DNA of 43,460 bases from a virus (lineage: Duplodnaviria; Caudoviricetes): positions 1-43,460 of the IMG/VR virus record IMGVR_UViG_3300048599_000747. One strand, 5' to 3'. The position numbers were made by a program, and so were the translations under genes. Shown here in pieces: positions 1,408 through 40,367 of the stretch. The notes under the pieces were generated by a model. The model was given only the letters and a program-made list of their open reading frames with translations, was not told where the DNA came from and ran no database searches. Each line of letters begins with the position of its first letter. The stretch's first letter is position 1.

Positions 1408-3659
1408 TCGGGAACGAATCTAGCCGTGATGGTTGAGTGAGTTAGCTCCTTAGTTCCTCTATGCTTAACCGAAACGACCATGAGTGGGATGCCCGACACT
1501 CCGGCCCTATCTGACTGAACCATCACTACGTCAAGAGGAAAAATGTCTGGTTGGTACCAAGTGGTGAACGGAACGGTGAGGCCAGGCATCCTGATCGTTC
1601 GGTACATGGCCGTGCCGGCTTCATAGGCAAATCCCTGTTCGGCAAAGAGGGAATCAACCCACGCCGATGGGTTCGGGTATCCAAGGTGGTTAAAGGCTCG
1701 AGTGTCGTCGATAACTCCCCAGTCTGTGAACTTCATAACGATGGGATCCCACCGCGGCGTGAACGCATTGACTCCGATCAGGATCGCATCAGAACGGACT
1801 TCGTCCATGTCCTTCGATGATCCAATTGCCCAGCAACCTTCTGGACCGCCAGCTTCCACATCCGACTCATAGAAGGTGCGCTTAATATTCGATGGGATTC
1901 TGAACTTCTCAAAGGCCAGGTCGCCGGCGACGTCAAAGAAAAGCATGAAACCAATACTCGCAGCGATCTTTACCATCAGGTCCCACAGTTCGGGACTCGT
2001 CGGTCGGGTGAGTGCAGATCCAGATTCACCAACCGGCAGATAGTAAGCAGGACCACCGAGACCATCTCCGAGGTCACTTCCAGGACCAAATGGAAAACTA
2101 GGAATGAGTTGGGCGAACCTCATATTGCGAAGAGAAACCCCTCCGAGCTGAGCAAGAAAGCCGATCGCATAGAAAACGTTCCAACCGTCCATCCAGGGCA
2201 GCGCCCACCGAGGGTTTCTAAGCTGCCTAGCCCTTCCTCTGCACGTGATCACGCATTCACTAGCTGCGTTCGATGACTCGGTATCTCCCTGGGTGTTTCC
2301 ATAGCCCGTGAACTGAAGAACCGACGGGCCGAACGAACCATAGTTGTTGATGGTTCGGGAACCCCATATCTGGCAGCCGACCTGGCCATGGTTCACAACC
2401 CATTGCCCCCAGGTTCCCCAATAGCCAAACGGACGATTTCCTTGTCGATTATTGTTGAAGCCCAGTTTTGCGACCGATTCAATCTCGAGGCTTTCGGGTC
2501 TAAATGTGTGCTCAACCTCGATCCATTCGGGCTCAACACGCCACCCGGAATCTGGGTCGAAGCTTTCTTCACCGTGGTAAACAACTTCAACACCTCGAAC
2601 GGCCGCCACCCAGTCGGAATAGTCAACCTGTCGGTAGGTTCCCGAATAGGGCGCCGTCAGCACCGCGGTGTAATAAACGTTGGGCCCGGTGAGATCGCTT
2701 TGGTTTGGGTCAAAAAAGATATCGCAACCGGGAGGAACGACGCCGGCGGCGTCTGCAAATGGTGGATCGAACCGGTCAGAAGAGAAGCCGATTGGGTTTT
2801 CAGGACTAACCCAGGTGACCGATGTTCTCCATTTCATCGGGTGAGCTGAACATGCAAGCGTTTTGAAACCTCGAGCCCTAATGCGTGCAGAGTTAATCTG
2901 CCACAGGGGTAAGCCAAGCGAGTCGCAGCGAGACTCCTCGAAGTAATGAGCCTCATCTTGACAACCAACCCGAAAAGCCATACGGCCGGCAATAAGGCGG
3001 CACTCGAGCATGTTCATATCGAGCGGAGCTTCAGTGTCCGATTCACCGCCAAGTGAGCCCGCTTTCCACATCTCGGAAGATCCGGCAAGAACCGCTCGAT
3101 CTACCCAACTCCCACCTGGCTCTAATATTGCCAACCTAATCGAGTTAAGACCTTCGATTCGTATCGAGTAAATGATCTCGTCGCTACCGACTCCAACCCC
3201 GATGCGGAAGGTTTGAAATTTCTGTTCAATGTGATTGCCTTTTCCCTCGTCGGGATCCGTTCTCGCCCAAAGGAACGTTATGCCTTGGCAAGCACCGGTG
3301 CACTCGACATCAAGCACATCGAGACCCGTGGAGCTTGAAACGGCGATCTCCTGAAAGCCGAGAGGGTTGTTGGCTCTGTATGATGGTGCAATCCCGCCCA
3401 TGTTTTGCCAGTAAACGAACGGCAATGTGTCAGGCTCGCCGGCATAACCGCTATCAGGGTTCTGGTGATGAGGAATGAAAATGGGAGCGGCGTATACGGC
3501 CTGGAGGTTGAAGTCAAAAACGATATCTTCGGCGCCTTGCAAGTTGGCCACTCCGGACTGCCAAGGAAAATCGGTATAGATGAAGAACGGTTTTCGCTGC
3601 AAAGGGAACATCCCCCTGGTGCCTGAAAACCGAACATCGAAGCTATCCTCTATCCTCAT
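1404..3659 (-). CDS. Large virion structural protein, probably tail tip or baseplate hub-like
   Basis: 751 aa, beta-rich. The C-terminal FFDVAGDLAF...PDIFPLDVVMV...VVSVKH pattern resembles tail hub proteins. ATGA-coupled to both neighbours. Confidence 0.5.
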   Translation of the reverse strand: MRIEDSFDVRFSGTRGMFPLQRKPFFIYTDFPWQSGVANLQGAEDIVFDFNLQAVYAAPIFIPHHQNPDSGYAGEPDTLPFVYWQNMGGIAPSYRANNPLGFQEIAVSSSTGLDVLDVECTGACQGITFLWARTDPDEGKGNHIEQKFQTFRIGVGVGSDEIIYSIRIEGLNSIRLAILEPGGSWVDRAVLAGSSEMWKAGSLGGESDTEAPLDMNMLECRLIAGRMAFRVGCQDEAHYFEESRCDSLGLPLWQINSARIRARGFKTLACSAHPMKWRTSVTWVSPENPIGFSSDRFDPPFADAAGVVPPGCDIFFDPNQSDLTGPNVYYTAVLTAPYSGTYRQVDYSDWVAAVRGVEVVYHGEESFDPDSGWRVEPEWIEVEHTFRPESLEIESVAKLGFNNNRQGNRPFGYWGTWGQWVVNHGQVGCQIWGSRTINNYGSFGPSVLQFTGYGNTQGDTESSNAASECVITCRGRARQLRNPRWALPWMDGWNVFYAIGFLAQLGGVSLRNMRFAQLIPSFPFGPGSDLGDGLGGPAYYLPVGESGSALTRPTSPELWDLMVKIAASIGFMLFFDVAGDLAFEKFRIPSNIKRTFYESDVEAGGPEGCWAIGSSKDMDEVRSDAILIGVNAFTPRWDPIVMKFTDWGVIDDTRAFNHLGYPNPSAWVDSLFAEQGFAYEAGTAMYRTIRMPGLTVPFTTWYQPDIFPLDVVMVQSDRAGVSGIPLMVVSVKHRGTKELTHSTITARFVPE

Positions 3660-5797
3660 CGTGGATCCACCTTGTGAATGGACTGACCAGGAAGGCTAAT
3701 TGAAGATGTTCGAAGCTGGCTGGCAGTCTTGACGGCGATCGCACGACCCGTTCGTATGGTTCGAGCGCCGAACGATTCAAACCGGCTCAAGGCTTCCCGT
3801 TCTTCGGCCCAGCGTGATCCTTCATCGAACCCGCCGCATTTCTTAAAAAGCTCGGTGCGTACTAGAATCCCACTCGTATATACACCGCCGGCTATGGTGA
3901 GAGCACCATCGGCGGATGCGATCAGGTCGCACACGATGGCGTCATAGTCATCTAGGTAGGGACTAACGAGATCCAGCCATCCGGGAAGTGCTAAGTCGTC
4001 GTCATCAAGAAACCAGGTCCATTCGCTCCTCACCGCCTCGATACCTCGGTTTCTGGCTACTGATGGCCCAAGAGGCTCAGAAAGCGATACCAGGCCCGTG
4101 TAGGGGCGGGATTGGGCTATCTGCATAGCGTAAGGCCTCGACTCCCTACCATCGGACACGATGACTACAGGTGCATGATCTCCAAGTGACTTGATGCAAG
4201 CCGATAAAGGCTGCGAGCGATCGCGTGTAGGAATGACCACCGTGACTGGGCAGTCGGACTGCTCGACCGGAACGTCAAGGCGCGCTTTCCAACCATCGAG
4301 CACGGTCGTATAGTTTGCCCAGGGTATAAGCCTTGATGAGTGGTGACCCTCTTCCTGAAGGTTCTTAGCCCAATGCGTCCTTGCAGTCACCTTTGGGATA
4401 TGGTTAATCCCTAACGGATCGATCGACATCACTTCGCGAAAGAGATCCCAGTCTTCTACAGCTCCCCCTGGCTCGTGGTTGTGTGGATCCACATTGAACA
4501 AAAGGCCCTTTTCTTTGAACAAACCCGCCCAAAAAACGGTTGAAGATGTCTTGATGAAGCACTCTTGCTCAAGTCGCTCTGGCCAGTATCGCCAATCCTT
4601 GAGCTGCTCTTCTGGATGCTGATCGGGCATGTAGCGGTAACGGCGGAACTCTTCGTCCCACCATCGCCAGGCGAAGTCCGTTTCGCTGTAGCTCATGAGG
4701 CAACTTGGGGTCGTTTCATGGTGGCGAAGGTGCTCTTCGAGGTGGTTTGACTTCCAAACGTCATCCGAGTCGAGAAACGCAATATATTTACCACTGGAGA
4801 TCTCGACGCCTTTATTGCGGGCTCCGCCTGGTCCCTGGTTATGCGGAAGGTGAATGAACCAAATCCGGTTCTCATGGCCGCGATATCTGGTTGTTGCCGC
4901 CCTCTGGATTCGGTCCCAATCTTGTGAGCCGTCGTCGATGACGTAAAGCCTCCAATGAGGCATCGTTTGCTTCAAAACGCTGTCGATCGCTTCGAAAAGA
5001 GCGTCGGTTCGGTTGTACGTGGGAATGACCACCGAGACCATCTCTTTGATGCCTTCCCGCTTTTCGGTAAGAAGGAAGCGAGAACGGCACATGCGTGCAT
5101 CCCTTTCATCTCCGATCCATGAGACGGTTTGATGCTCGAGATGCTCCACGTATGCACGCCTGGCATGGGCGATCTTCGTGAACCGAAGCGCCCGGTCAAA
5201 GAGGTCATAGTCTTCGCCGAAAAGCTCATACTCTTCGTCCATACCCCCAAGCTGGTCCCACATCTCATGGGCGATCGCAAAGCAGTAACCACCTTGCGGA
5301 ACGTATGGCGCGGTAATGAGCTTGTTCTCCTTGAATGAACCCTCATGAGAAGACCACCAACGTTCGACGTCTTCGATGGTTTGGTAGACATCATCCATCG
5401 ACTCCGGTCTTCTGAGGCGAGGAGGGGTTACACCCGCTGCAGATGCGCATTTGGGAGATAACGGCAAAGCAACAGAGCAAAAATCATCCAAGGCATGAAT
5501 GAGCTCTGAAACGCTTCCTGGAGCAAAAACCGTGTCGTTGTTGACCACGATCAGCACGTCCCAATCGCCTTTTAGAGCGGCGCCCATGTTGATACTTCGG
5601 GCGTAGGTGTACCGGTCGGGATTTACGATCAGCCGAATGTCCTTATTTCCTCTCAGTGCTGCCAGGGTGTCGTCGTCGGATCCATTGTCGACCACGACGA
5701 TATCGAGTGCTTCATCTTGTTGCCTCAGAGAGCTGAGGCACATGAGCGTGAGGAGCAAGTTGTTGAGAACTGGGATGACAATACGAACCTTTCTCAT
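3656..5797 (-). CDS. Glycosyltransferase with three tandem GT2 (GT-A) domains
   Basis: Three GT2 starts (IVIPVLN, VVIPTYNR, VVIPTRDR) with VVDNGS, IDDGS and VSDG, and DxD-type motifs NND, FLDSDD and FLDDDD. Confidence 0.92.
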   Translation of the reverse strand: MRKVRIVIPVLNNLLLTLMCLSSLRQQDEALDIVVVDNGSDDDTLAALRGNKDIRLIVNPDRYTYARSINMGAALKGDWDVLIVVNNDTVFAPGSVSELIHALDDFCSVALPLSPKCASAAGVTPPRLRRPESMDDVYQTIEDVERWWSSHEGSFKENKLITAPYVPQGGYCFAIAHEMWDQLGGMDEEYELFGEDYDLFDRALRFTKIAHARRAYVEHLEHQTVSWIGDERDARMCRSRFLLTEKREGIKEMVSVVIPTYNRTDALFEAIDSVLKQTMPHWRLYVIDDGSQDWDRIQRAATTRYRGHENRIWFIHLPHNQGPGGARNKGVEISSGKYIAFLDSDDVWKSNHLEEHLRHHETTPSCLMSYSETDFAWRWWDEEFRRYRYMPDQHPEEQLKDWRYWPERLEQECFIKTSSTVFWAGLFKEKGLLFNVDPHNHEPGGAVEDWDLFREVMSIDPLGINHIPKVTARTHWAKNLQEEGHHSSRLIPWANYTTVLDGWKARLDVPVEQSDCPVTVVIPTRDRSQPLSACIKSLGDHAPVVIVSDGRESRPYAMQIAQSRPYTGLVSLSEPLGPSVARNRGIEAVRSEWTWFLDDDDLALPGWLDLVSPYLDDYDAIVCDLIASADGALTIAGGVYTSGILVRTELFKKCGGFDEGSRWAEEREALSRFESFGARTIRTGRAIAVKTASQLRTSSISLPGQSIHKVDPR

Positions 5798-6348
5798 GGT
5801 CTTAGGGCCACCCCGTAGCCTCGGTCAAAATGGCTGCAAATTGTCGACCAGCCCATGGCATTAAGCCTAGCCAGGGCAAGGGAAGGTCCAGGCGAACTGG
5901 CTGGGCGTTCAACGAATGGCCATGTATCGTGGAGGCAGATACACTTCGCTCCCGCATCAATAGAGCGACGAACATCGAGCCAGCATTCTTCAACTCCATG
6001 ATCGCCATCGATGAGGGCCATATCCACATGATCAGGGAAGGGCACCGTAACCGAATCGCCGGCGATCAGCTCCACAACAGGCAGAGTGCCTGTCATCTCC
6101 AAGCTATATTTGAGATCATCCGGGGTGTGCTCGAGACAGAATAGGTCGACGACAACCAGATAGCCGGATCCATTCTCCTGGAGGGCTCGTGCAGCTCGCG
6201 CTGTGATGCATCCCTTGAAGCATCCAATCTCAAGCACCACATCGGGTCGAAGCCACCGAATCATTCCTTCTACGATCAGTGCATGGCGCTGGGTGTCGAG
6301 TCCTGGAATCTGCACCCAAGCCCGTTCAAATTCTTCTCGTGTAATCAT
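5794..6348 (-). CDS. Class I SAM-dependent methyltransferase (Methyltransf_24-like)
   Basis: VLEIGCFKG SAM motif, LIDGDH, and CLHDT. Confidence 0.88.
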   Translation of the reverse strand: MITREEFERAWVQIPGLDTQRHALIVEGMIRWLRPDVVLEIGCFKGCITARAARALQENGSGYLVVVDLFCLEHTPDDLKYSLEMTGTLPVVELIAGDSVTVPFPDHVDMALIDGDHGVEECWLDVRRSIDAGAKCICLHDTWPFVERPASSPGPSLALARLNAMGWSTICSHFDRGYGVALRP

Positions 6349-7100
6349 AAAATGCCTCCTAATTGGTTCAATATTCGAAATGCCTCGTTTATCACGTCAT
6401 CTATGGGAATGAGTTCGGGTGCGTTTTGGGCGAAAAGCGCCATCTGGACCGGCTCATCGAGCGGTAAATAGATCCGATCGGGGCGATGAAGCGAGACGAT
6501 CGAGACACTTGGAACCAGATTTCCAAGCGCTATAAAGAGCGGGCCGCTATCGAATCCCACGAAAAGATCTGCTGTAGAGCAAATGCCGGCGAGCTCCATG
6601 AGGGGAAGAGTGCCTATGACTTTGGCATCCTCCGGATGGTTCGATAAATTGCACGCATCGAGGTCGGCAACGTTAAAACCCAACGACCGAAAGAGACCAC
6701 TCATTTCCAGATAGCCGGAATGGGATTTCTCGCTACATCCTCCATGGTGTTGAACCAATATCCTTGGCTTGCGATCGCCCCAAAATTGGTGGCCACTCAA
6801 CTTAAAGATGTCTGGAACGTGGCAGTGCATCCGCTTGTGTTCCCAGTCGATGCCATGGTTCGCATACCACTCGACGCGTCCGAAGATCGCAGGAAACATC
6901 TCTTCAAAGTCATCGGGAGTAGGGTATTGAAACCCGTGAAACACGATATCCGGCCACTCTCGAAAGAAGTCCATCCAACGGCTTGGTATGGCGCTCACAT
7001 GCACGGTCTCTCCGGTATGTCTTCGAAGCTCCATGATTGCCGACAAGCCTTGCAGAACATCACCCATTCCCATCTCCCAGTTGAAATGGAAGCCTCGCAT
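6345..7100 (-). CDS. GT9 (ADP-heptose:LPS heptosyltransferase-like, GT-B) glycosyltransferase
   Basis: GMGDVL N-terminal motif and ADLFVGFDSGPLFIA C-terminal motif. Start re-called to the ATG at 7100, which overlaps the radical SAM stop (TGATG). Confidence 0.8.
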   Translation of the reverse strand: MRGFHFNWEMGMGDVLQGLSAIMELRRHTGETVHVSAIPSRWMDFFREWPDIVFHGFQYPTPDDFEEMFPAIFGRVEWYANHGIDWEHKRMHCHVPDIFKLSGHQFWGDRKPRILVQHHGGCSEKSHSGYLEMSGLFRSLGFNVADLDACNLSNHPEDAKVIGTLPLMELAGICSTADLFVGFDSGPLFIALGNLVPSVSIVSLHRPDRIYLPLDEPVQMALFAQNAPELIPIDDVINEAFRILNQLGGIL

Positions 7101-8347
7101 CACTTTTTCCTGGGGCACAATCGGCAAACCTTGTTGTCCATTGAGGTTTCGTTCGCCCAGTTGCTCAAAAAGGCCTGATAGTCCTTGTTCTTCTCGATGA
7201 TCGACATCCAATCGCCTTCTCGAATGTTTCCAATCGAGTGGCGAGCAAGGCATGACCAAACCTCACCGGTGTGGTCTACATACACCTCACGTGGAGCAAC
7301 GAAATATTCCACATTCTCATCGTTATCGGGCTGTATGCTCGATAGGGGCTGAACGGCTGCTTTCTTCAGGGGTGAATCAGTTGGAAGCTTGAACCAAGGA
7401 ACCTCTGGCAGAATGACTACGGCTCCCGTAGATCCGGTGGTTAGCCCTGGAGAACCTGAACCTGAATTAATGATTGCCGTCGTAGTTGCGGTTCCGATGC
7501 CCCCACATGGATTAGCACTCATCAGAAAATCGGTGTATCGGCGCCATCCTTTTAGGTCGGTTCCATCCTCGCCGGCGTTCGGGTTTAGATCGGAAAATGT
7601 GGGCAATTGAGCGATGAACCAAATTCCTTCCTTTTCAGCGATAGTTCTGGCTTCATCAACCATTCGGAGCGTTCGGTCTCTGAAGAACCGTATCGACTGG
7701 TTGACCCTACTCGTTACGTGGTGATCGGCGCCGACCATCGTGATCTCAGCGCCATCTGAATGTCTGCCTATACCCAGCCTGGCGCACAATTCCACCCATT
7801 TTGGAAGTTCATCGATGTTGGCCGCGGTGGCGGTGAATTGGCTCAGCATGATCGCTCCAGGCTTTGCCTTTCGGAAGATCTGAACGTTTGTAACAAGCTC
7901 CGCTAGGTCGCCTTTACGAACACGTCGATAGGCTTCGTCCGTGCCGGCATCGATCGACACCGAAACTCGGGGAACATCTCCTACCGAATCAAGAATCGAC
8001 TTCTTTCCGAGATAGTGGCCGTTGGTAAAGAAGAACAGGTTCTTGCCTGTACTGACGATTTCCTTTGCAGCAGGTACGAAGATCGGCGAGAGTGTAGGTT
8101 CACCAAGGCCACCTAGCTCCATGTTCTCGGCATGGGGCATGAACCGGTCCGCGATGAGCTTCCATGTGTCCGCATTCATGTTCTTCGACAGATCGAGCGG
8201 GGAAGAGGTATCGAACTCGATTACTCCTTTTTGAGTCTTTCCGATGCTGTTCTTAGGCAGCAGCTCTCGCTCGCACATGGTGCATGAGAGGTTGCAAACT
8301 GACGAGATACGGGCGTGGACTGCTCTTGGTAAGTAAATCGTTTTCAT
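7100..8347 (-). CDS. Radical SAM protein with SPASM/twitch-like C-terminus
   Basis: CNLSCTMC (CxxxCxxC), GLGEPTL, FTNG, VSIDAG, and C-terminal VDHTGEVWSC...IGN...CRLC. Confidence 0.92.
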   Translation of the reverse strand: MKTIYLPRAVHARISSVCNLSCTMCERELLPKNSIGKTQKGVIEFDTSSPLDLSKNMNADTWKLIADRFMPHAENMELGGLGEPTLSPIFVPAAKEIVSTGKNLFFFTNGHYLGKKSILDSVGDVPRVSVSIDAGTDEAYRRVRKGDLAELVTNVQIFRKAKPGAIMLSQFTATAANIDELPKWVELCARLGIGRHSDGAEITMVGADHHVTSRVNQSIRFFRDRTLRMVDEARTIAEKEGIWFIAQLPTFSDLNPNAGEDGTDLKGWRRYTDFLMSANPCGGIGTATTTAIINSGSGSPGLTTGSTGAVVILPEVPWFKLPTDSPLKKAAVQPLSSIQPDNDENVEYFVAPREVYVDHTGEVWSCLARHSIGNIREGDWMSIIEKNKDYQAFLSNWANETSMDNKVCRLCPRKK

Positions 8348-8396: not shown

Positions 8397-8415
8397 AATC
8401 TGCGTTCTCAGCCTC

Positions 8416-8838
8416 CTACTTCGAGGCTACGGCGTCAGCGATCGCAACAAGCACGTCGCCGCCCTTGTCTCCCCAGGTTCTTGAAGCCGTAAGAATTTCC
8501 TGAACCTTGGTCTCATCCTTGATACCGAGAGGCGCACAAACATATTTGCGGATCGTGTTCTCGCTCGGTGTCATTGCGCGGTCGGCGCCGGTCTGGATCT
8601 GGTTTTTATTGGCCAGGTAGGCCGCAACGAGAGCCATTCCAATAACGCCTTGAAAGCCTCCGAGAAGGCTCAGGATATTAGCTGAGCTCACGGATGCACC
8701 TGCGAGGCCTTCGGGCTCGTCGGCACTGGCGCCATAGGCGGTTGCCAGAGATTGTTCGTCTACGGACTCGCCGTTGATGGCTGTGACTTCGCCATTTTCG
8801 ATTGTGATCTCTAAGATCATGGGTTTACTCCTTGTCAT
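8416..8838 (-). CDS. Hypothetical protein with a central hydrophobic helix
   Basis: 140 aa, co-oriented with and overlapping the upstream ORF. Confidence 0.6.
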   Translation of the reverse strand: MTRSKPMILEITIENGEVTAINGESVDEQSLATAYGASADEPEGLAGASVSSANILSLLGGFQGVIGMALVAAYLANKNQIQTGADRAMTPSENTIRKYVCAPLGIKDETKVQEILTASRTWGDKGGDVLVAIADAVASK

Positions 8839-27971: not shown

Positions 27972-30011
27972 TCATGCTTCTCCCATTTCAAAGGCCTCTA
28001 CGTGGTAGACCTTATGCCTTTGCCCCTTCATCCTCTTGGATGCTTCTGGATATTGCTTCACGGTGACCTTTACAGGCACTTTCTTGCCGCCGTAATCCAT
28101 GGTCGACCTAAGCACGTGGATTTGTGCAATGTCTGCTGAACCTCGCCGGTCGTCTCGGTTTTCGACATGCTCTGCTGAGTTTAGGATATGGGCCAGGTTG
28201 AACGCAGCATCGGCTTGTTCAGGTGTGTTTGGACCGCTTGCGATCTTCCCAGCTGTGCTGTGGTTCACAACTGCCGTCCCATCAATACCATCCAGCTCGT
28301 ATGTGCCTTCTAGACTATCGACATGGTGTTCTATTGCTTGCCTTAACGCACCCTTTTTGAGGTCTCTGAAGGGTGCAGGATGTGGAGCGAAAGACTTTCC
28401 GATTTCGATTGGATCATTGTTCATGTCCCTATCGTCTGCGCTGCTTTTTTGCCCTGTCTGGTCGCCCGATCCCTTGGGTGCGAACTTGCCATCTGGGTCT
28501 CGGTTATCGTCGCTTAGTTCTGCCTTGAGCTCAGCTTTATCGTCCTTGAGTGGGTCAGGTCCTACCGAATCATCACTTGGTGTCTCTTTCGTTATCGGTG
28601 AGGTCAGACGGCTCTCTATGGCGCTCTGGATCGCACTCTTCATGCGCTGGGCAGCTGAGACTGTGACGAGGGCTAGGCCGTTGTCTTGAGCGATATTCGA
28701 CCAGTCGGGTTCGAGGTCGTTGCCTTCAACGTCCTGGACGGGAACGCCTGTTGAAAGCAGAGACAGGAGTGCACGGAGGAGAGCTCGCTTGACCTTGGCA
28801 TCGAGCGGTTCGAAGACGATACGGCACTCTGGAGCATCGGCGCCGAAGTTGAAAAGAACGAAATCCTTCAGTAGTTGCTCATTAAGAACAGCCGTGAGCT
28901 CGTCGAGAATCGCTTCGCAGTTCTCAATGAACAGATCGAGCACCGCTTCACCGAGGTTATAAGTGCCGGTATCTGGGCTCTCACTCGAAGCCATTTCGGG
29001 AACGACCAAGGCGATTCGGATCATATCGTTGAGTAGGCTGATCTTCTCGACATACCGATCCTCTCCTGGAGGTTGGGTGATGTCAATTCCCCACAGAGGA
29101 TTGCCTGAAACGTCGAACTCTGATGGCAATGTGACGCTATGACCGCTCTCAAGGCCTGCGAGCGTATCGTTCATCAAATCGGAGCTCGCTTGTTGAATTG
29201 GCTTACCGTCAGGCCCGATACCGGCCGACGTAAAGCCCGGCTTGTGGTGGCCTACCGTCCAGGGCACCGCGAAACGTTTGGAATACATGCCCAAGTCATC
29301 CCACACGGACTCAACGAGCTCCACAAATGGAACTGCAGGCTTTGTCCTCGGGATGCCATAGTTGCCGTCAAACTCCTTGTCATTAGTGAAGTGGATCACT
29401 TTAGACTTGGGGATGTCTTTTTGCTCCACAGTCCCGATGAATTGCCGAATGCCGGCAAACTCGCTCGTGTCTGATCGGACCAGAATCCGCGTATCGAGTG
29501 GCGACATCGACGCAAACCGTTTGATCGTCCATATGAACGGGAAGTCTCGCTCGATATCGGCGCTTGAGTTGGCCTGCGTCGTGGTAACCGAGACCTCAAA
29601 CCGCGGAACCCACACCTTCTCAACAGCTTGATAACCGAACTCTTGAGCTCCTTTAATCAGTATCCCAATGAGTTCGGAGATGCGCGGCCCAAGCTCTTGT
29701 TTTGCCAGGTCAGCAATATCCGGCCGTGCACATGAAAAATGGAAGTTTGCTCGCTTGATCGGTGTCCGGAGAGTGCTAAGTGAATCCTTGACGATCGGAT
29801 ACCACCGAACACGATCGTAGTCCCTTATCGCGATCTCATCATACCGATTGGCAAGGCAAACGACGTCGTCCTTTCTTCCACGTCCCCAGCGAGACATTTG
29901 AGGCACATAGCGAGCGTCGCCGGTTCGAGCGAGTGGCCGGGTGTCGGGATGCCGCACCTTCGGTTTGCGCTTGAAGATCGCAGGTAAGGAGAACAGCTTG
30001 AATCTAGCCAC
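27972..30011 (-). CDS. Portal protein (Mu gp29/DUF935-like) with a C-terminal LPD3-like domain
   Basis: FGYQAVEKVW, IPKSKVIHF, YGIPR, RFAVP and LNEQLLKDFVLFNFG portal motifs; extra C-terminal region of about 200 aa. Confidence 0.88.
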   Translation of the reverse strand: MARFKLFSLPAIFKRKPKVRHPDTRPLARTGDARYVPQMSRWGRGRKDDVVCLANRYDEIAIRDYDRVRWYPIVKDSLSTLRTPIKRANFHFSCARPDIADLAKQELGPRISELIGILIKGAQEFGYQAVEKVWVPRFEVSVTTTQANSSADIERDFPFIWTIKRFASMSPLDTRILVRSDTSEFAGIRQFIGTVEQKDIPKSKVIHFTNDKEFDGNYGIPRTKPAVPFVELVESVWDDLGMYSKRFAVPWTVGHHKPGFTSAGIGPDGKPIQQASSDLMNDTLAGLESGHSVTLPSEFDVSGNPLWGIDITQPPGEDRYVEKISLLNDMIRIALVVPEMASSESPDTGTYNLGEAVLDLFIENCEAILDELTAVLNEQLLKDFVLFNFGADAPECRIVFEPLDAKVKRALLRALLSLLSTGVPVQDVEGNDLEPDWSNIAQDNGLALVTVSAAQRMKSAIQSAIESRLTSPITKETPSDDSVGPDPLKDDKAELKAELSDDNRDPDGKFAPKGSGDQTGQKSSADDRDMNNDPIEIGKSFAPHPAPFRDLKKGALRQAIEHHVDSLEGTYELDGIDGTAVVNHSTAGKIASGPNTPEQADAAFNLAHILNSAEHVENRDDRRGSADIAQIHVLRSTMDYGGKKVPVKVTVKQYPEASKRMKGQRHKVYHVEAFEMGEA

Positions 30012-30561
30012 GCACCGCTCCCATGTTGATCCGGAACATCTTCGATGTCCATCGTCTTGTCTTGCGGATTACCCGATCGCCTTCGCGACTGCCGGCGTCG
30101 TTACTGTTGCCCTCGATCGTTTGCATGAACCAAATTCCGAGGATCGAGTAGGCCTTCACGATGAAGAAGATGTGACCTGTGCCATCGGCGTTTACCCACC
30201 CAGCTAGATCTCCTCTTTGAGCACCCTTGCAGGTGTTCAGTAGAATCCCCAGCTTTGCGGCCCACGCTTTCCAACCGAAAGCGCTCTGAGGGTGACCTGG
30301 TCCGTCACTCAGCCGCCAACCGGCTCGAACGAAACACCAGAAGACAAAGCTCGCACACCAAGGCGATCCGGGCTTTGCACCCGCGGTATTGAGGTATTCG
30401 CGTATTCGAGGTGAGTCATTCTGGGTCACTTCATGGACCTTGAAAACATCGCACTCGACGCTAGCGACGATGAGTCCTCTTTCCTTGAGGGTGAGACTAG
30501 TCCACTTTGCGTCTGAAAGCCAGGTAACGGGTGAAGTGCTCATGCTTCGGGAGACGGACAT
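30004..30561 (-). CDS. CHAP-domain endolysin
   Basis: PWCASFVFW (Cys), GHIFFI (His) and TIEGNS. Confidence 0.88.
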   Translation of the reverse strand: MSVSRSMSTSPVTWLSDAKWTSLTLKERGLIVASVECDVFKVHEVTQNDSPRIREYLNTAGAKPGSPWCASFVFWCFVRAGWRLSDGPGHPQSAFGWKAWAAKLGILLNTCKGAQRGDLAGWVNADGTGHIFFIVKAYSILGIWFMQTIEGNSNDAGSREGDRVIRKTRRWTSKMFRINMGAVRG

Positions 30562-30593: not shown

Positions 30594-30632
30594 GAAGAAC
30601 AACGGGACTGCCTCGATTTGAGACAATCCCGT
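30594..30632 (-). terminator. Terminator-like hairpin
   Basis: Minus strand ACGGGATTGTCTC-AAATC-GAGGCAGTCCCGT (13 bp including G-U pairs) followed by TGTTCTT. Confidence 0.55.
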
Positions 30633-30656: not shown

Positions 30657-30980
30657 TTACTCGACTTGAGAGGCGAGGTTGGTGAGGGCGTCGGCCGCTG
30701 CTTGTGCCTTGGTGGCGTTGTCGGCGGCTAGGGTCTGGATTTCCGCGAGTTGCTCGGGTGTGACGGTTGTCGCCTCAAGAGCGGCGATGCGGTCAGAGAG
30801 CGTCTTTTCGTCGGCTGCGATGTTGGTCACCGCATCGGAGATGGTGTTGAGAGCCGCTGCTGTAGTGGCTTCTGATGCCTGAATGTCTTCAATGGCCATA
30901 GACTGTTTCCTTTGGGTCTTTGTGATCTTGCAGAGTAACCCGAGGGTTAACATCTGCAGAATGATGGTGAGAGGGTTCAT
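30657..30980 (-). CDS. Ala-rich coiled-coil protein (alternative start at 30899)
   Basis: Heptad pattern; two possible starts, each with an SD-like sequence. Confidence 0.7.
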   Translation of the reverse strand: MNPLTIILQMLTLGLLCKITKTQRKQSMAIEDIQASEATTAAALNTISDAVTNIAADEKTLSDRIAALEATTVTPEQLAEIQTLAADNATKAQAAADALTNLASQVE

Positions 30981-30983
30981 GTT

Positions 30984-31020
30984 GTTTCAATCCTCATCCG
31001 GGTCTAATCCCGGATGCCAC
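30984..31020 (-). CRISPR. Solitary CRISPR repeat unit, type I-C-like (not an array)
   Basis: GTGGCATCCGGGATTAGACCCGGATGAGGATTGAAAC: 37 nt, GT start, 8-bp stem, ATTGAAAC end. Only one copy seen. Confidence 0.75.
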
Positions 31021-31047
31021 CCATGCACACCTTGAGACGCCAGGCCC

Positions 31048-31530
31048 TTATTCCTCGTCGTTATCAGGTTCGATTTCACCACCCTCAGGCGTTTCCGTTC
31101 GCTTTCTGATGTCGTTCACGATACCGACGATCTCCTTGCCAATGTTCATGTTCGCGTCAACCTGCAGCTGATCCTTGCGCCCCCAATCATCCGGCTTTCG
31201 GCGTTCAAGCATCCAAGCCGCTGCATGCCAGTCCATCTCCTTTGTTTTAGTCGTTTCGGTTGACGTTCCATCTGGACTAATCTTTACCTTGGTGGTGACA
31301 ACCTCATGTTCGGTGCCGGCTTTGGTGATGATCGAAACGAGGTGAACTTCCCATTCGGCTTCCGCGCGCGCGATGAGCTCCGCAAAATCCGCGTAACGCT
31401 TCAACCACCGGGCGAGTGTGTCTTCGCTTATTCCTCCATAAAGACATGCTGCTCGACGGGTGTTTCCGGTCTTAAGCGCCTGGGCTATTCGGTCGGCTCT
31501 CTCTTGGGTGAATTTCGGTTTTCTTGCCAT
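31048..31530 (-). CDS. terS: Terminase small subunit-like HTH protein
   Basis: MARKPKFT...GNTRRAACLYGGISEDTLARW HTH and WHAAAWMLERRKPDDWGR motif. Start re-called to 31530. Confidence 0.75.
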   Translation of the reverse strand: MARKPKFTQERADRIAQALKTGNTRRAACLYGGISEDTLARWLKRYADFAELIARAEAEWEVHLVSIITKAGTEHEVVTTKVKISPDGTSTETTKTKEMDWHAAAWMLERRKPDDWGRKDQLQVDANMNIGKEIVGIVNDIRKRTETPEGGEIEPDNDEE

Positions 31531-32203
31531 TTTGAGTCTGGAGCGGACGGGTCGGATTCGAACCGCCTTCTTCCGTCTGGGAGACGGTTGCATCACCAAT
31601 AATGCTTCGTCCGCGCTTAGGATACGACCTCGCAAGGGGTAGGAGCCGCTCGCGGCTGCCTTTATCGAGGGGCATCAAATACTTGTGCTTTCCTGGCTTT
31701 TTCACGTATTTGAGGGCCGTTCGGTCGATCTGATGACCCGTTTCGATACGTTTGCTGATCGTTCTCGGATGGACAACACGGCCATCGAGCAAAGGATATT
31801 TGTCAGGCTCAGTTCGGCCGACATAGATCCAATTGGATGCTTGATAGATCGCTCCGAGATGTCCCTCAGCCGGATCAGCATATGAGACGATGAGCTTGAG
31901 CCCTGGATACCGACGCTTGATCATCCGAATGGCCACCGAAAGTATCTTCGAAACGTGGGCTTGATGTCTCTTCAATGCAACCCTCACGAGCTCGCAGACT
32001 TGCGTATGCTTTAAGCCGTATGGCTCGCCGATGTGATTACATGCTCCAACTCCGAAAATGACGGCGCCGATAAAGATTCCTGACTCCCACACGCCGATTC
32101 TCGCAAGCTTCCCAGCCGGCATTCGTCTAGAATAGTGCCAATGCTCGACGGCGTATTTTGATGCTACGAACGTGCACCAATCGAGCTTAAGGGATCCACT
32201 CAT
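31472..32203 (-). CDS. mom: Mom-family adenine modification enzyme (GNAT fold)
   Basis: HWHYS, IGAVIFG, CELVRVAL and IVSYADPAEGHLGAIYQASNWIYVG motifs. Start re-called to the ATG at 32203. Confidence 0.88.
   Translation of the reverse strand: MSGSLKLDWCTFVASKYAVEHWHYSRRMPAGKLARIGVWESGIFIGAVIFGVGACNHIGEPYGLKHTQVCELVRVALKRHQAHVSKILSVAIRMIKRRYPGLKLIVSYADPAEGHLGAIYQASNWIYVGRTEPDKYPLLDGRVVHPRTISKRIETGHQIDRTALKYVKKPGKHKYLMPLDKGSRERLLPLARSYPKRGRSIIGDATVSQTEEGGSNPTRPLQTQNGKKTEIHPRESRPNSPGA
31539..31614 (-). tRNA. Non-canonical tRNA-Gly(CCC)-like RNA embedded in the mom 3' end
   Basis: GCGGACG AA GCAT TATTGGTG ATGC A ACCGT CTCCCAG ACGGA AGAA GGCGG TTCGAAT CCGACC CGTCCGC T CCA: a 76-nt cloverleaf with encoded CCA. 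Confidence 0.88.
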
Positions 32204-39425: not shown

Positions 39426-39480
39426 CATCATACACCAGAATGGCTTATTATGAAGCAGGTATTTCTTCTTTTTTCGCGCA
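39426..39480 (-). promoter_or_regulatory. Leftward early promoter/operator block
   Basis: TTCATA-16 nt-TATGAT; inverted copy of 40313-40367 (46/55 identical). Confidence 0.75.
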
Positions 39481-40312: not shown

Positions 40313-40367
40313 TGCACGAATAAAGAAGAAAAACATGCTTCATATAACGCCAATTTGGTGTATGATG
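40313..40367 (+). promoter_or_regulatory. Rightward early promoter/operator block
   Basis: TTCATA-16 nt-TATGAT; inverted copy of 39426-39480. Confidence 0.75.

Follow-up and report, generated by a model that had tools for sequence, protein, structure and literature searches.

In a 43,460-base provirus record (the window hereafter; 96% complete), a solitary 37-nt type I-C CRISPR repeat lies on the minus strand at 30984..31020, in the sense of the late genes, within the 67-nt gap between terS (31048..31530, minus strand) and ATG 30980 of the following gene, ORF107 (30657..30980, minus strand). Comparison with a syntenic relative indicates that the repeat most likely overwrote the ORF107 ribosome-binding site and that its own GAGGA took over. 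We assign a probability of about one in two to the wider reading, namely that a captured repeat has been kept as a ribosome site and is a predicted Cas5c substrate as a by-product.

A solitary repeat among late genes

The lytic genes of the window are on the minus strand. terS is directly upstream of the repeat and runs in the same direction; the repeat starts 27 nt past the terS stop and ends 3 nt ahead of ATG 30980. ORF107, which encodes a hydrophobic N-terminus and a long helix, directly precedes a CHAP endolysin gene (30004..30561, minus strand). A terminator-like hairpin follows ORF107 (30602..30632, minus strand), and such sites number 3 in all, vs 3.4 expected by chance. Promoter-like sites are likewise at chance level (2 found vs 1.4 +/- 1.0 expected), and a −35-like hexamer in the repeat tail was rejected for the same reason. 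At the far end of the late region, ~30 kb from terS, is terL (1-1407), preceded in that region by glycosyltransferase, methyltransferase, and radical SAM genes (3656-8347). A 55-nt inverted repeat with 84% complementarity (39426-39480 and 40313-40367) flanks the S24 repressor gene and likely comprises operators. No RNA data set was among the sequencing runs listed as containing the window. Three wastewater runs contain small shares of it (0.05-0.07), as a few exact pieces near 32.1-33.0 kb and none across the repeat; they are uninformative on expression, habitat, or absence.

The initial annotation of this DNA described a type I-C-like repeat in sense orientation after terS, a stem followed by exactly 11 nt, and the lack of a second repeat or a cas gene, all of which was borne out. 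Its fold has 4 nt ahead of an 8-bp stem with a 6-nt loop, and then a tail of 11 nt (z −4.35; none of 200 shuffles is equally stable). A profile built from 35 array repeats gives the copy 39.8 bits, compared with −1.5 for the next site in the window and 4.9 for the best of 10 shuffles, which all but excludes a chance look-alike as its origin. A search allowing up to 3 mismatches returned this one copy; the closest look-alike of its 5′ half, 256 nt away inside ORF107, has no tail. No cas family was detected among the 56 ORFs of the window scanned. The element is a solitary repeat unit (SRU) as that class is defined: intergenic, with no full or partial second repeat nearby and no cas genes.

Rfam matches the repeat to CRISPR-DR9 (E 7.7e-4, 33.2 bits, under the gathering score of 45). 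A search of species genomes with the 18 letters at its 3′ end recovered 58 stretches at 56 loci, and ~20 of those loci are arrays of 37-nt repeats that differ from the window copy at 5-11 positions. Cas candidates were taken from seven of these ~20 array loci; Cas7c and Cas8c exceeded the cut-off in 7/7 loci and Cas5c in 6/6. Stem covariation across 19 repeats reveals both-sided changes in five of nine pairs. By its sequence, the element is a type I-C CRISPR repeat. The nearest array repeat, from a Capsulimonadales genome, is identical at 32 of 37 letters, with all five differences at the stem top and loop. Relative to the 37-nt type I-C array repeats (CRISPR-DR9-like; Capsulimonadales L015/L043), the window copy has the same stem base and tail, but it is single and has an A-A mismatch at the stem top; A13 is absent from the 35 array consensus repeats. 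The copy matches 20/20 positions conserved in those consensus repeats, about half of them fixed by the search pattern, and its pair at 12-19 is G-C, unlike that of most arrays. The array search that the initial annotation called for thus yielded a near repeat at five mismatches, but neither a host nor an identical array repeat was found in the species-genome and metagenome-contig scans. Viral contigs, metagenome contigs, and annotated phages, collections that may lack the window's own or nearest genome, contained no exact or near-exact repeat.

Cas5c is reported to cleave at the stem base and leave an 11-nt handle (PMC5965381), and the Bacillus halodurans enzyme is described as tolerating loop and 5′ changes, while changes near the cut block cleavage (PMC8524198). 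Together with the fold, this literature leads us to predict that the window repeat is an intact Cas5c site, cut between 30995 and 30994 (30994..30995, minus strand) to give a product with its 5′ end at 30994 and an 11-nt handle.

The initial annotation also placed the repeat next to mom. In the window, terS separates the two, and the mom 3′ end and a tRNA-Gly overlap immediately ahead of terS. This tRNA-Gly(CCC) (31539-31614, minus strand), with an encoded CCA, starts where the Mom domain ends and is read through within the mom 3′ end. tRNA-Gly-like RNAs follow the Mom domain at 15 of 63 distinct loci at ARAGORN -ps90 and at 35 of 63 at -ps80 (window included); the anticodon is NCC in 14 of 15 relaxed-threshold tRNA calls at Mom 3′ ends, vs 0 in two controls. 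The Mom donor is reported to be Gly-tRNA-Gly (PMC13219725), and the tRNA-Gly in the mom 3′ end is likely the enzyme's own glycine donor.

The probable ORF107 ribosome-binding site and its counterpart in a relative

The tail of the repeat contains GAGGA (30991..30995, minus strand), 10 nt ahead of ATG 30980. It is likely the Shine–Dalgarno sequence of ORF107, as had been proposed at the outset, an assignment supported both by computed pairing and by the GGAGGA that a relative has in the same place. The pairing energy is −5.6 kcal/mol for ATG 30980, and there is none (+1.7) for Met10. The start at 30980 is further supported by the orthologue P0010, the N-terminus of which (MNLLTLGLL) aligns to the hydrophobic N-terminus of ORF107. 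Met28, an in-frame start at 30899, has its own SD-like site (−4.9 kcal/mol), and P0010 has a Met at a similar place; a dual start of ORF107 is possible. P0010 was the only relative of ORF107 among 1.84 billion representatives. No homologue was found in 401 genomes of the phylum of genome G001, and a viral match (L002) was rejected as spurious.

P0010 is encoded at L207, the syntenic member of the 11 loci recovered by a metagenome scan with the TerS alignment. The order of terS (59% identity to the window), the ORF107 orthologue, endolysin (74%), portal (71%), and two further genes is the same as in the window, and the repeat is absent (best profile score −2.2). An 11-nt flank that is identical in both (31034..31044, minus strand) anchors the comparison. 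From this flank to the ATG there are 21 nt with GGAGGA in L207, and 53 nt with the repeat in the window; the junction was read from anchors, since a MAFFT alignment misplaced the start codons. Because L207 lacks the repeat but has a plain Shine–Dalgarno sequence before the same gene, the repeat most likely overwrote the ORF107 ribosome-binding site, with its GAGGA as the replacement. Gain of the repeat in the window's lineage is the parsimonious reading of these sequences rather than a proven one, as is the exact junction, because the single empty-site relative is ~30% diverged and has its terS fused to another frame. In both phages, the Shine–Dalgarno sequence is predicted to pair with the first codons.

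The L207 locus is a rearranged prophage remnant, in which terS, without its N-terminus, is fused in frame to an open frame of ~1,000 residues beside the host sufB (L207:1088-4483). The repeat tail follows terS in 0 of 17 TerS-relative loci, 16 of which are distant. A prophage in genome G429 has neither ORF107 nor the repeat, and no portal relatives were found in viral contigs.

Downstream of the repeat, the initial annotation noted a 32-nt, spacer-length stretch and then a small hairpin. The hairpin is real, but the stretch is 34 nt, and both lie inside the ORF107 frame. The hairpin spans codons 7-19 (30926..30960, minus strand), with the core at 30936-30949 (codons L-T-L-G-L) as its tip, and the extended form starts 23 nt past the repeat. 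It falls in the top 1.9% of 9,849 41-nt windows and is strong relative to synonymous recoding (z −3.4, second of 30 N-termini). The repeat-less orthologue forms a −20 kcal/mol hairpin from different letters, 16-17 nt past the ATG, vs 20 nt in the window. Since that orthologue has an early hairpin of its own, the one in the window probably belongs to the gene and not to the repeat. The idea that spacer and hairpin mimic a crRNA, with the hairpin as its 3′ element, was rejected: the sequence is coding, and the orthologue without the repeat has a hairpin at a similar place.

Solitary repeats in chromosomes and the likely host

We hand-sorted the solitary repeats from two pattern scans and scanned 134 neighboring ORFs. 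With two cas-locus cases, one array end, one duplicate, and 13 loci without a Pfam neighbor left out, 23 annotated non-cas solitary repeats remain. Their orientation is sense in 17 and antisense in 6 (one-sided p 0.017, for hand-sorted, nonindependent cases with two on one contig). The tail serves as a Shine–Dalgarno sequence in two clear cases and one probable case. In one Chloroflexota locus, within the S10 operon, 3 nt separate the repeat from rplC (L042:1327-1363, minus strand); in another, the repeat directly abuts serS, at 0 nt (L018:10001-10037, minus strand). The probable third case of window-like geometry is at a penicillin-binding protein gene. Both clear cases are sporadic. Of 25 genomes, a single one has the rplC repeat, which is missing even from relatives with 93-94% identity in L3; the serS repeat is present in one of the 18 loci read out of 26 genomes. 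Because the same anatomy occurs sporadically before these chromosomal genes, a solitary repeat alone does not indicate anti-CRISPR activity. Cas5c was detected in one of five incomplete genomes with chromosomal solitary repeats, and the array repeat there is visibly unlike the serS repeat.

The type I-C PAM is TTC. Among the rplC empty alleles, 5 of 15 have TTN at the junction, the two best matches included, which fits replacement of a PAM by the repeat. L207, at which the letters in the would-be PAM position are TCA rather than TTN, does not fit such replacement, though it is distant.

Further chromosomal solitary repeats (L013:9982-10018, L052:9789-9825, L021:1744-1780, and L055:5342-5378) are found upstream of genes for an ETF, a leucyl aminopeptidase, and a solute-binding protein. 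The interval between zapA and the 5-FTHF cyclo-ligase gene, a common site of 6S RNA, is another such location. In type I-C operons, repeats occur just before cas5c (L049:9982-10018) and cas3 (L050, near 8399-8435), where self-regulation through Cas5c cutting or a crlRNA is possible. Each of two viral contigs (L060/L061 and L087/L088) has two separate solitary I-C repeats several kb apart, one of them before an HTH gene.

The host is tentatively assigned to the Armatimonadota, which we take to be the phylum of G001. For the SufB encoded next to the L207 remnant, identity to the best matches is 80-83% in 201 genomes of that phylum and at most 75% in plasmids; the assignment is only tentative because this search covered that phylum and plasmids. 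Related prophage genes are present in G429 and G178, members of one family. Arrays of the window's repeat family occur in 15 of 175 genomes of this candidate host family, with the nearest repeat at eight mismatches. Spacer matching (473 and 286 spacers) returned chance-level matches only, of 14-15 exact letters or up to 21 with mismatches.

Competing explanations and biological meaning

In the reading that we favor, a repeat from a host array would have been captured by recombination between an array spacer and its phage target, a type of exchange that has been reported (PMC8616872). Such an event would also eliminate the PAM and let the phage escape the spacer concerned. The incoming repeat would have overwritten the Shine–Dalgarno sequence and persisted by providing a replacement in its tail. 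Where the host has a matching Cas5c, cleavage of the late mRNA at 30995/30994 would split terS from ORF107 and shorten the Shine–Dalgarno sequence to AGGA at the new 5′ end, and Cas5c, Cas8c, and Cas7 would load over the start codon. ORF107 output from the first start would fall, and part of the Cascade pool would be occupied late in infection; both would be side effects, not the reason for the repeat. This by-product might pass for weak, late anti-CRISPR activity. The anatomy is compatible with a Cas-dependent mRNA cut as a predicted effect, not as shown selection. Several observations weigh against capture. The 20/20 intact positions and the G-C pair at 12-19 fit selection for Cas recognition as well as recent capture, and with no identical array repeat, the donor is unseen. 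Only the two clear cases and one probable case among the 23 solitary repeats use the tail as a Shine–Dalgarno sequence, and RacrIC1, as described in PMC10651486, is likewise inside an operon and is inhibitory upon expression.

A selected RNA anti-CRISPR (Racr) would have an abundant late transcript cut by Cas5c, the handle-bearing product of which sequesters Cascade subunits and shields the phage from interference or priming. We consider this unlikely, and less likely than the ribosome-site reading. The intact cut-site region, the sense orientation (shared by 17 of the 23 solitary repeats), the report that RacrIC1 acts from a bicistronic mRNA (PMC10651486), and the arrays of this family in 15/175 genomes of the candidate host family all argue for it. 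They are countered by the lack of the repeat in the syntenic L207, promoter-like sites at chance level, and the same anatomy before chromosomal serS and rplC. Location among late genes would imply expression after interference usually acts. No acr-named family was recognized among the ORFs scanned (56 with Pfam, 21 with PHROGs, and 21 with NCBIfam), a weak test; an acr gene is often within 1 kb of a Racr, an enrichment rather than a requirement, and the neighbors here are terS, mom, ORF107, and endolysin. That the phage might instead use the repeat as a one-repeat guide, with the handle and ~35 nt of ORF107 loading host Cascade to attack PAM-bearing sister phages while the repeat protects the carrier, is quite unlikely. 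The 34 nt to the core hairpin fall at the mode of spacer lengths (274 of 473 array spacers have 34-35 nt), five of the 15 rplC empty alleles have TTN at the junction, and viral mini-arrays are reported to target related viruses (PMC11656645). Yet such a guide would have an undefined 3′ end, with no second repeat and an extended hairpin that starts 23 nt past the repeat, and the letters of L207 at the PAM position are TCA. A PAM-flanked target for the 35 nt that follow the repeat was found neither in the window nor in the other loci searched, which comprised 2.15 million bases (both strands) of fetched sequence and 20 array-bearing loci. The sole viral match, of 18 nt in an unrelated phage (L335), is preceded by GTT rather than TTC, is at about the level expected by chance, and was rejected as a target.

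Very doubtful, too, is a selected switch, through which the phage would sense a I-C-positive cell via host Cas5c and lower ORF107, likely a lysis-cassette accessory, or shift to the start at 30899. A cut inside the Shine–Dalgarno sequence weakens its computed pairing from −5.6 to −4.4 kcal/mol, and the second start has an SD-like site at −4.9 kcal/mol. ORF107 precedes endolysin and has a hydrophobic N-terminus, and the repeat just before the cas5c Shine–Dalgarno sequence at L049 indicates that this geometry exists in cas operons. The repeat is not conserved in L207, however, and ORF107 has no known function. Moreover, the cut in isolation is predicted to leave the Shine–Dalgarno region somewhat freer (unpaired 0.22 to 0.53), so the effect may have either sign. 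It is highly improbable that the repeat is an att site through which the phage enters a CRISPR array, or that the resemblance is due to chance. A streptococcal phage is reported to integrate into repeats through attP (bioRxiv 2020.10.09.333658), but the window repeat is mid-provirus, flanked by two late genes, and the scan of 56 ORFs detected no integrase family; the profile scores speak against a look-alike.

The element resembles several described systems without coinciding with any of them. Like RacrIC1 and other viral solitary repeat units (Camara-Wilpert et al. 2023, PMC10651486, in which 2,103 viral solitary-repeat cases are reported), it is one intergenic host-type repeat in a prophage operon, with no second repeat and no cas genes. 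Unlike RacrIC1 as described there, it has no recognized acr gene or promoter of its own, lies among late genes, has a tail that is likely a Shine–Dalgarno sequence, and has an empty-site relative; inhibition is only a candidate function. The window repeat was not found in nine supplementary files of that study, the long ones of which may be incomplete. With viral crlRNAs, or Cracrs (bioRxiv 10.1101/2024.10.29.618823), it would share a phage RNA that begins at a CRISPR-like repeat and can be loaded by host Cas proteins. Cracrs are reported to match, at nine or more PAM-proximal positions, the spacer of a host CreA/R RNA directed against cas or toxin promoters; by contrast, the stretch downstream of the window repeat is coding and has no PAM-flanked match in the loci compared, the true host locus not among them. 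Virus-borne mini-arrays (PMC11656645, PMC8616872) likewise place about a spacer length of phage-type sequence after a repeat, but in the window neither a further repeat, full or truncated, nor a target was identified, which sets the element apart from a mini-array as defined in these sources. Our literature search, with subscription papers mostly outside its scope, returned nothing on CRISPR repeats that serve as ribosome-binding sites.

Catalogs treat phage solitary repeats as candidate RNA anti-CRISPRs. The empty-site relative and the chromosomal parallels provide a concrete route by which such repeats may arise and persist without anti-CRISPR selection. In a bolder and improbable version, type I-C repeats would be a recurring source of ribosome-binding sites: the SD-like handle GAGGA would let captured copies survive at phage and essential host start codons (rplC, serS), placing these genes under host Cas5c, and the phage studied here would use the cut both to retune a lysis-cassette gene and to make its late mRNA a Cascade decoy or guide. 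If Cas5c does cut such sites, a crRNA-processing enzyme would exert translation-level control of non-CRISPR genes.
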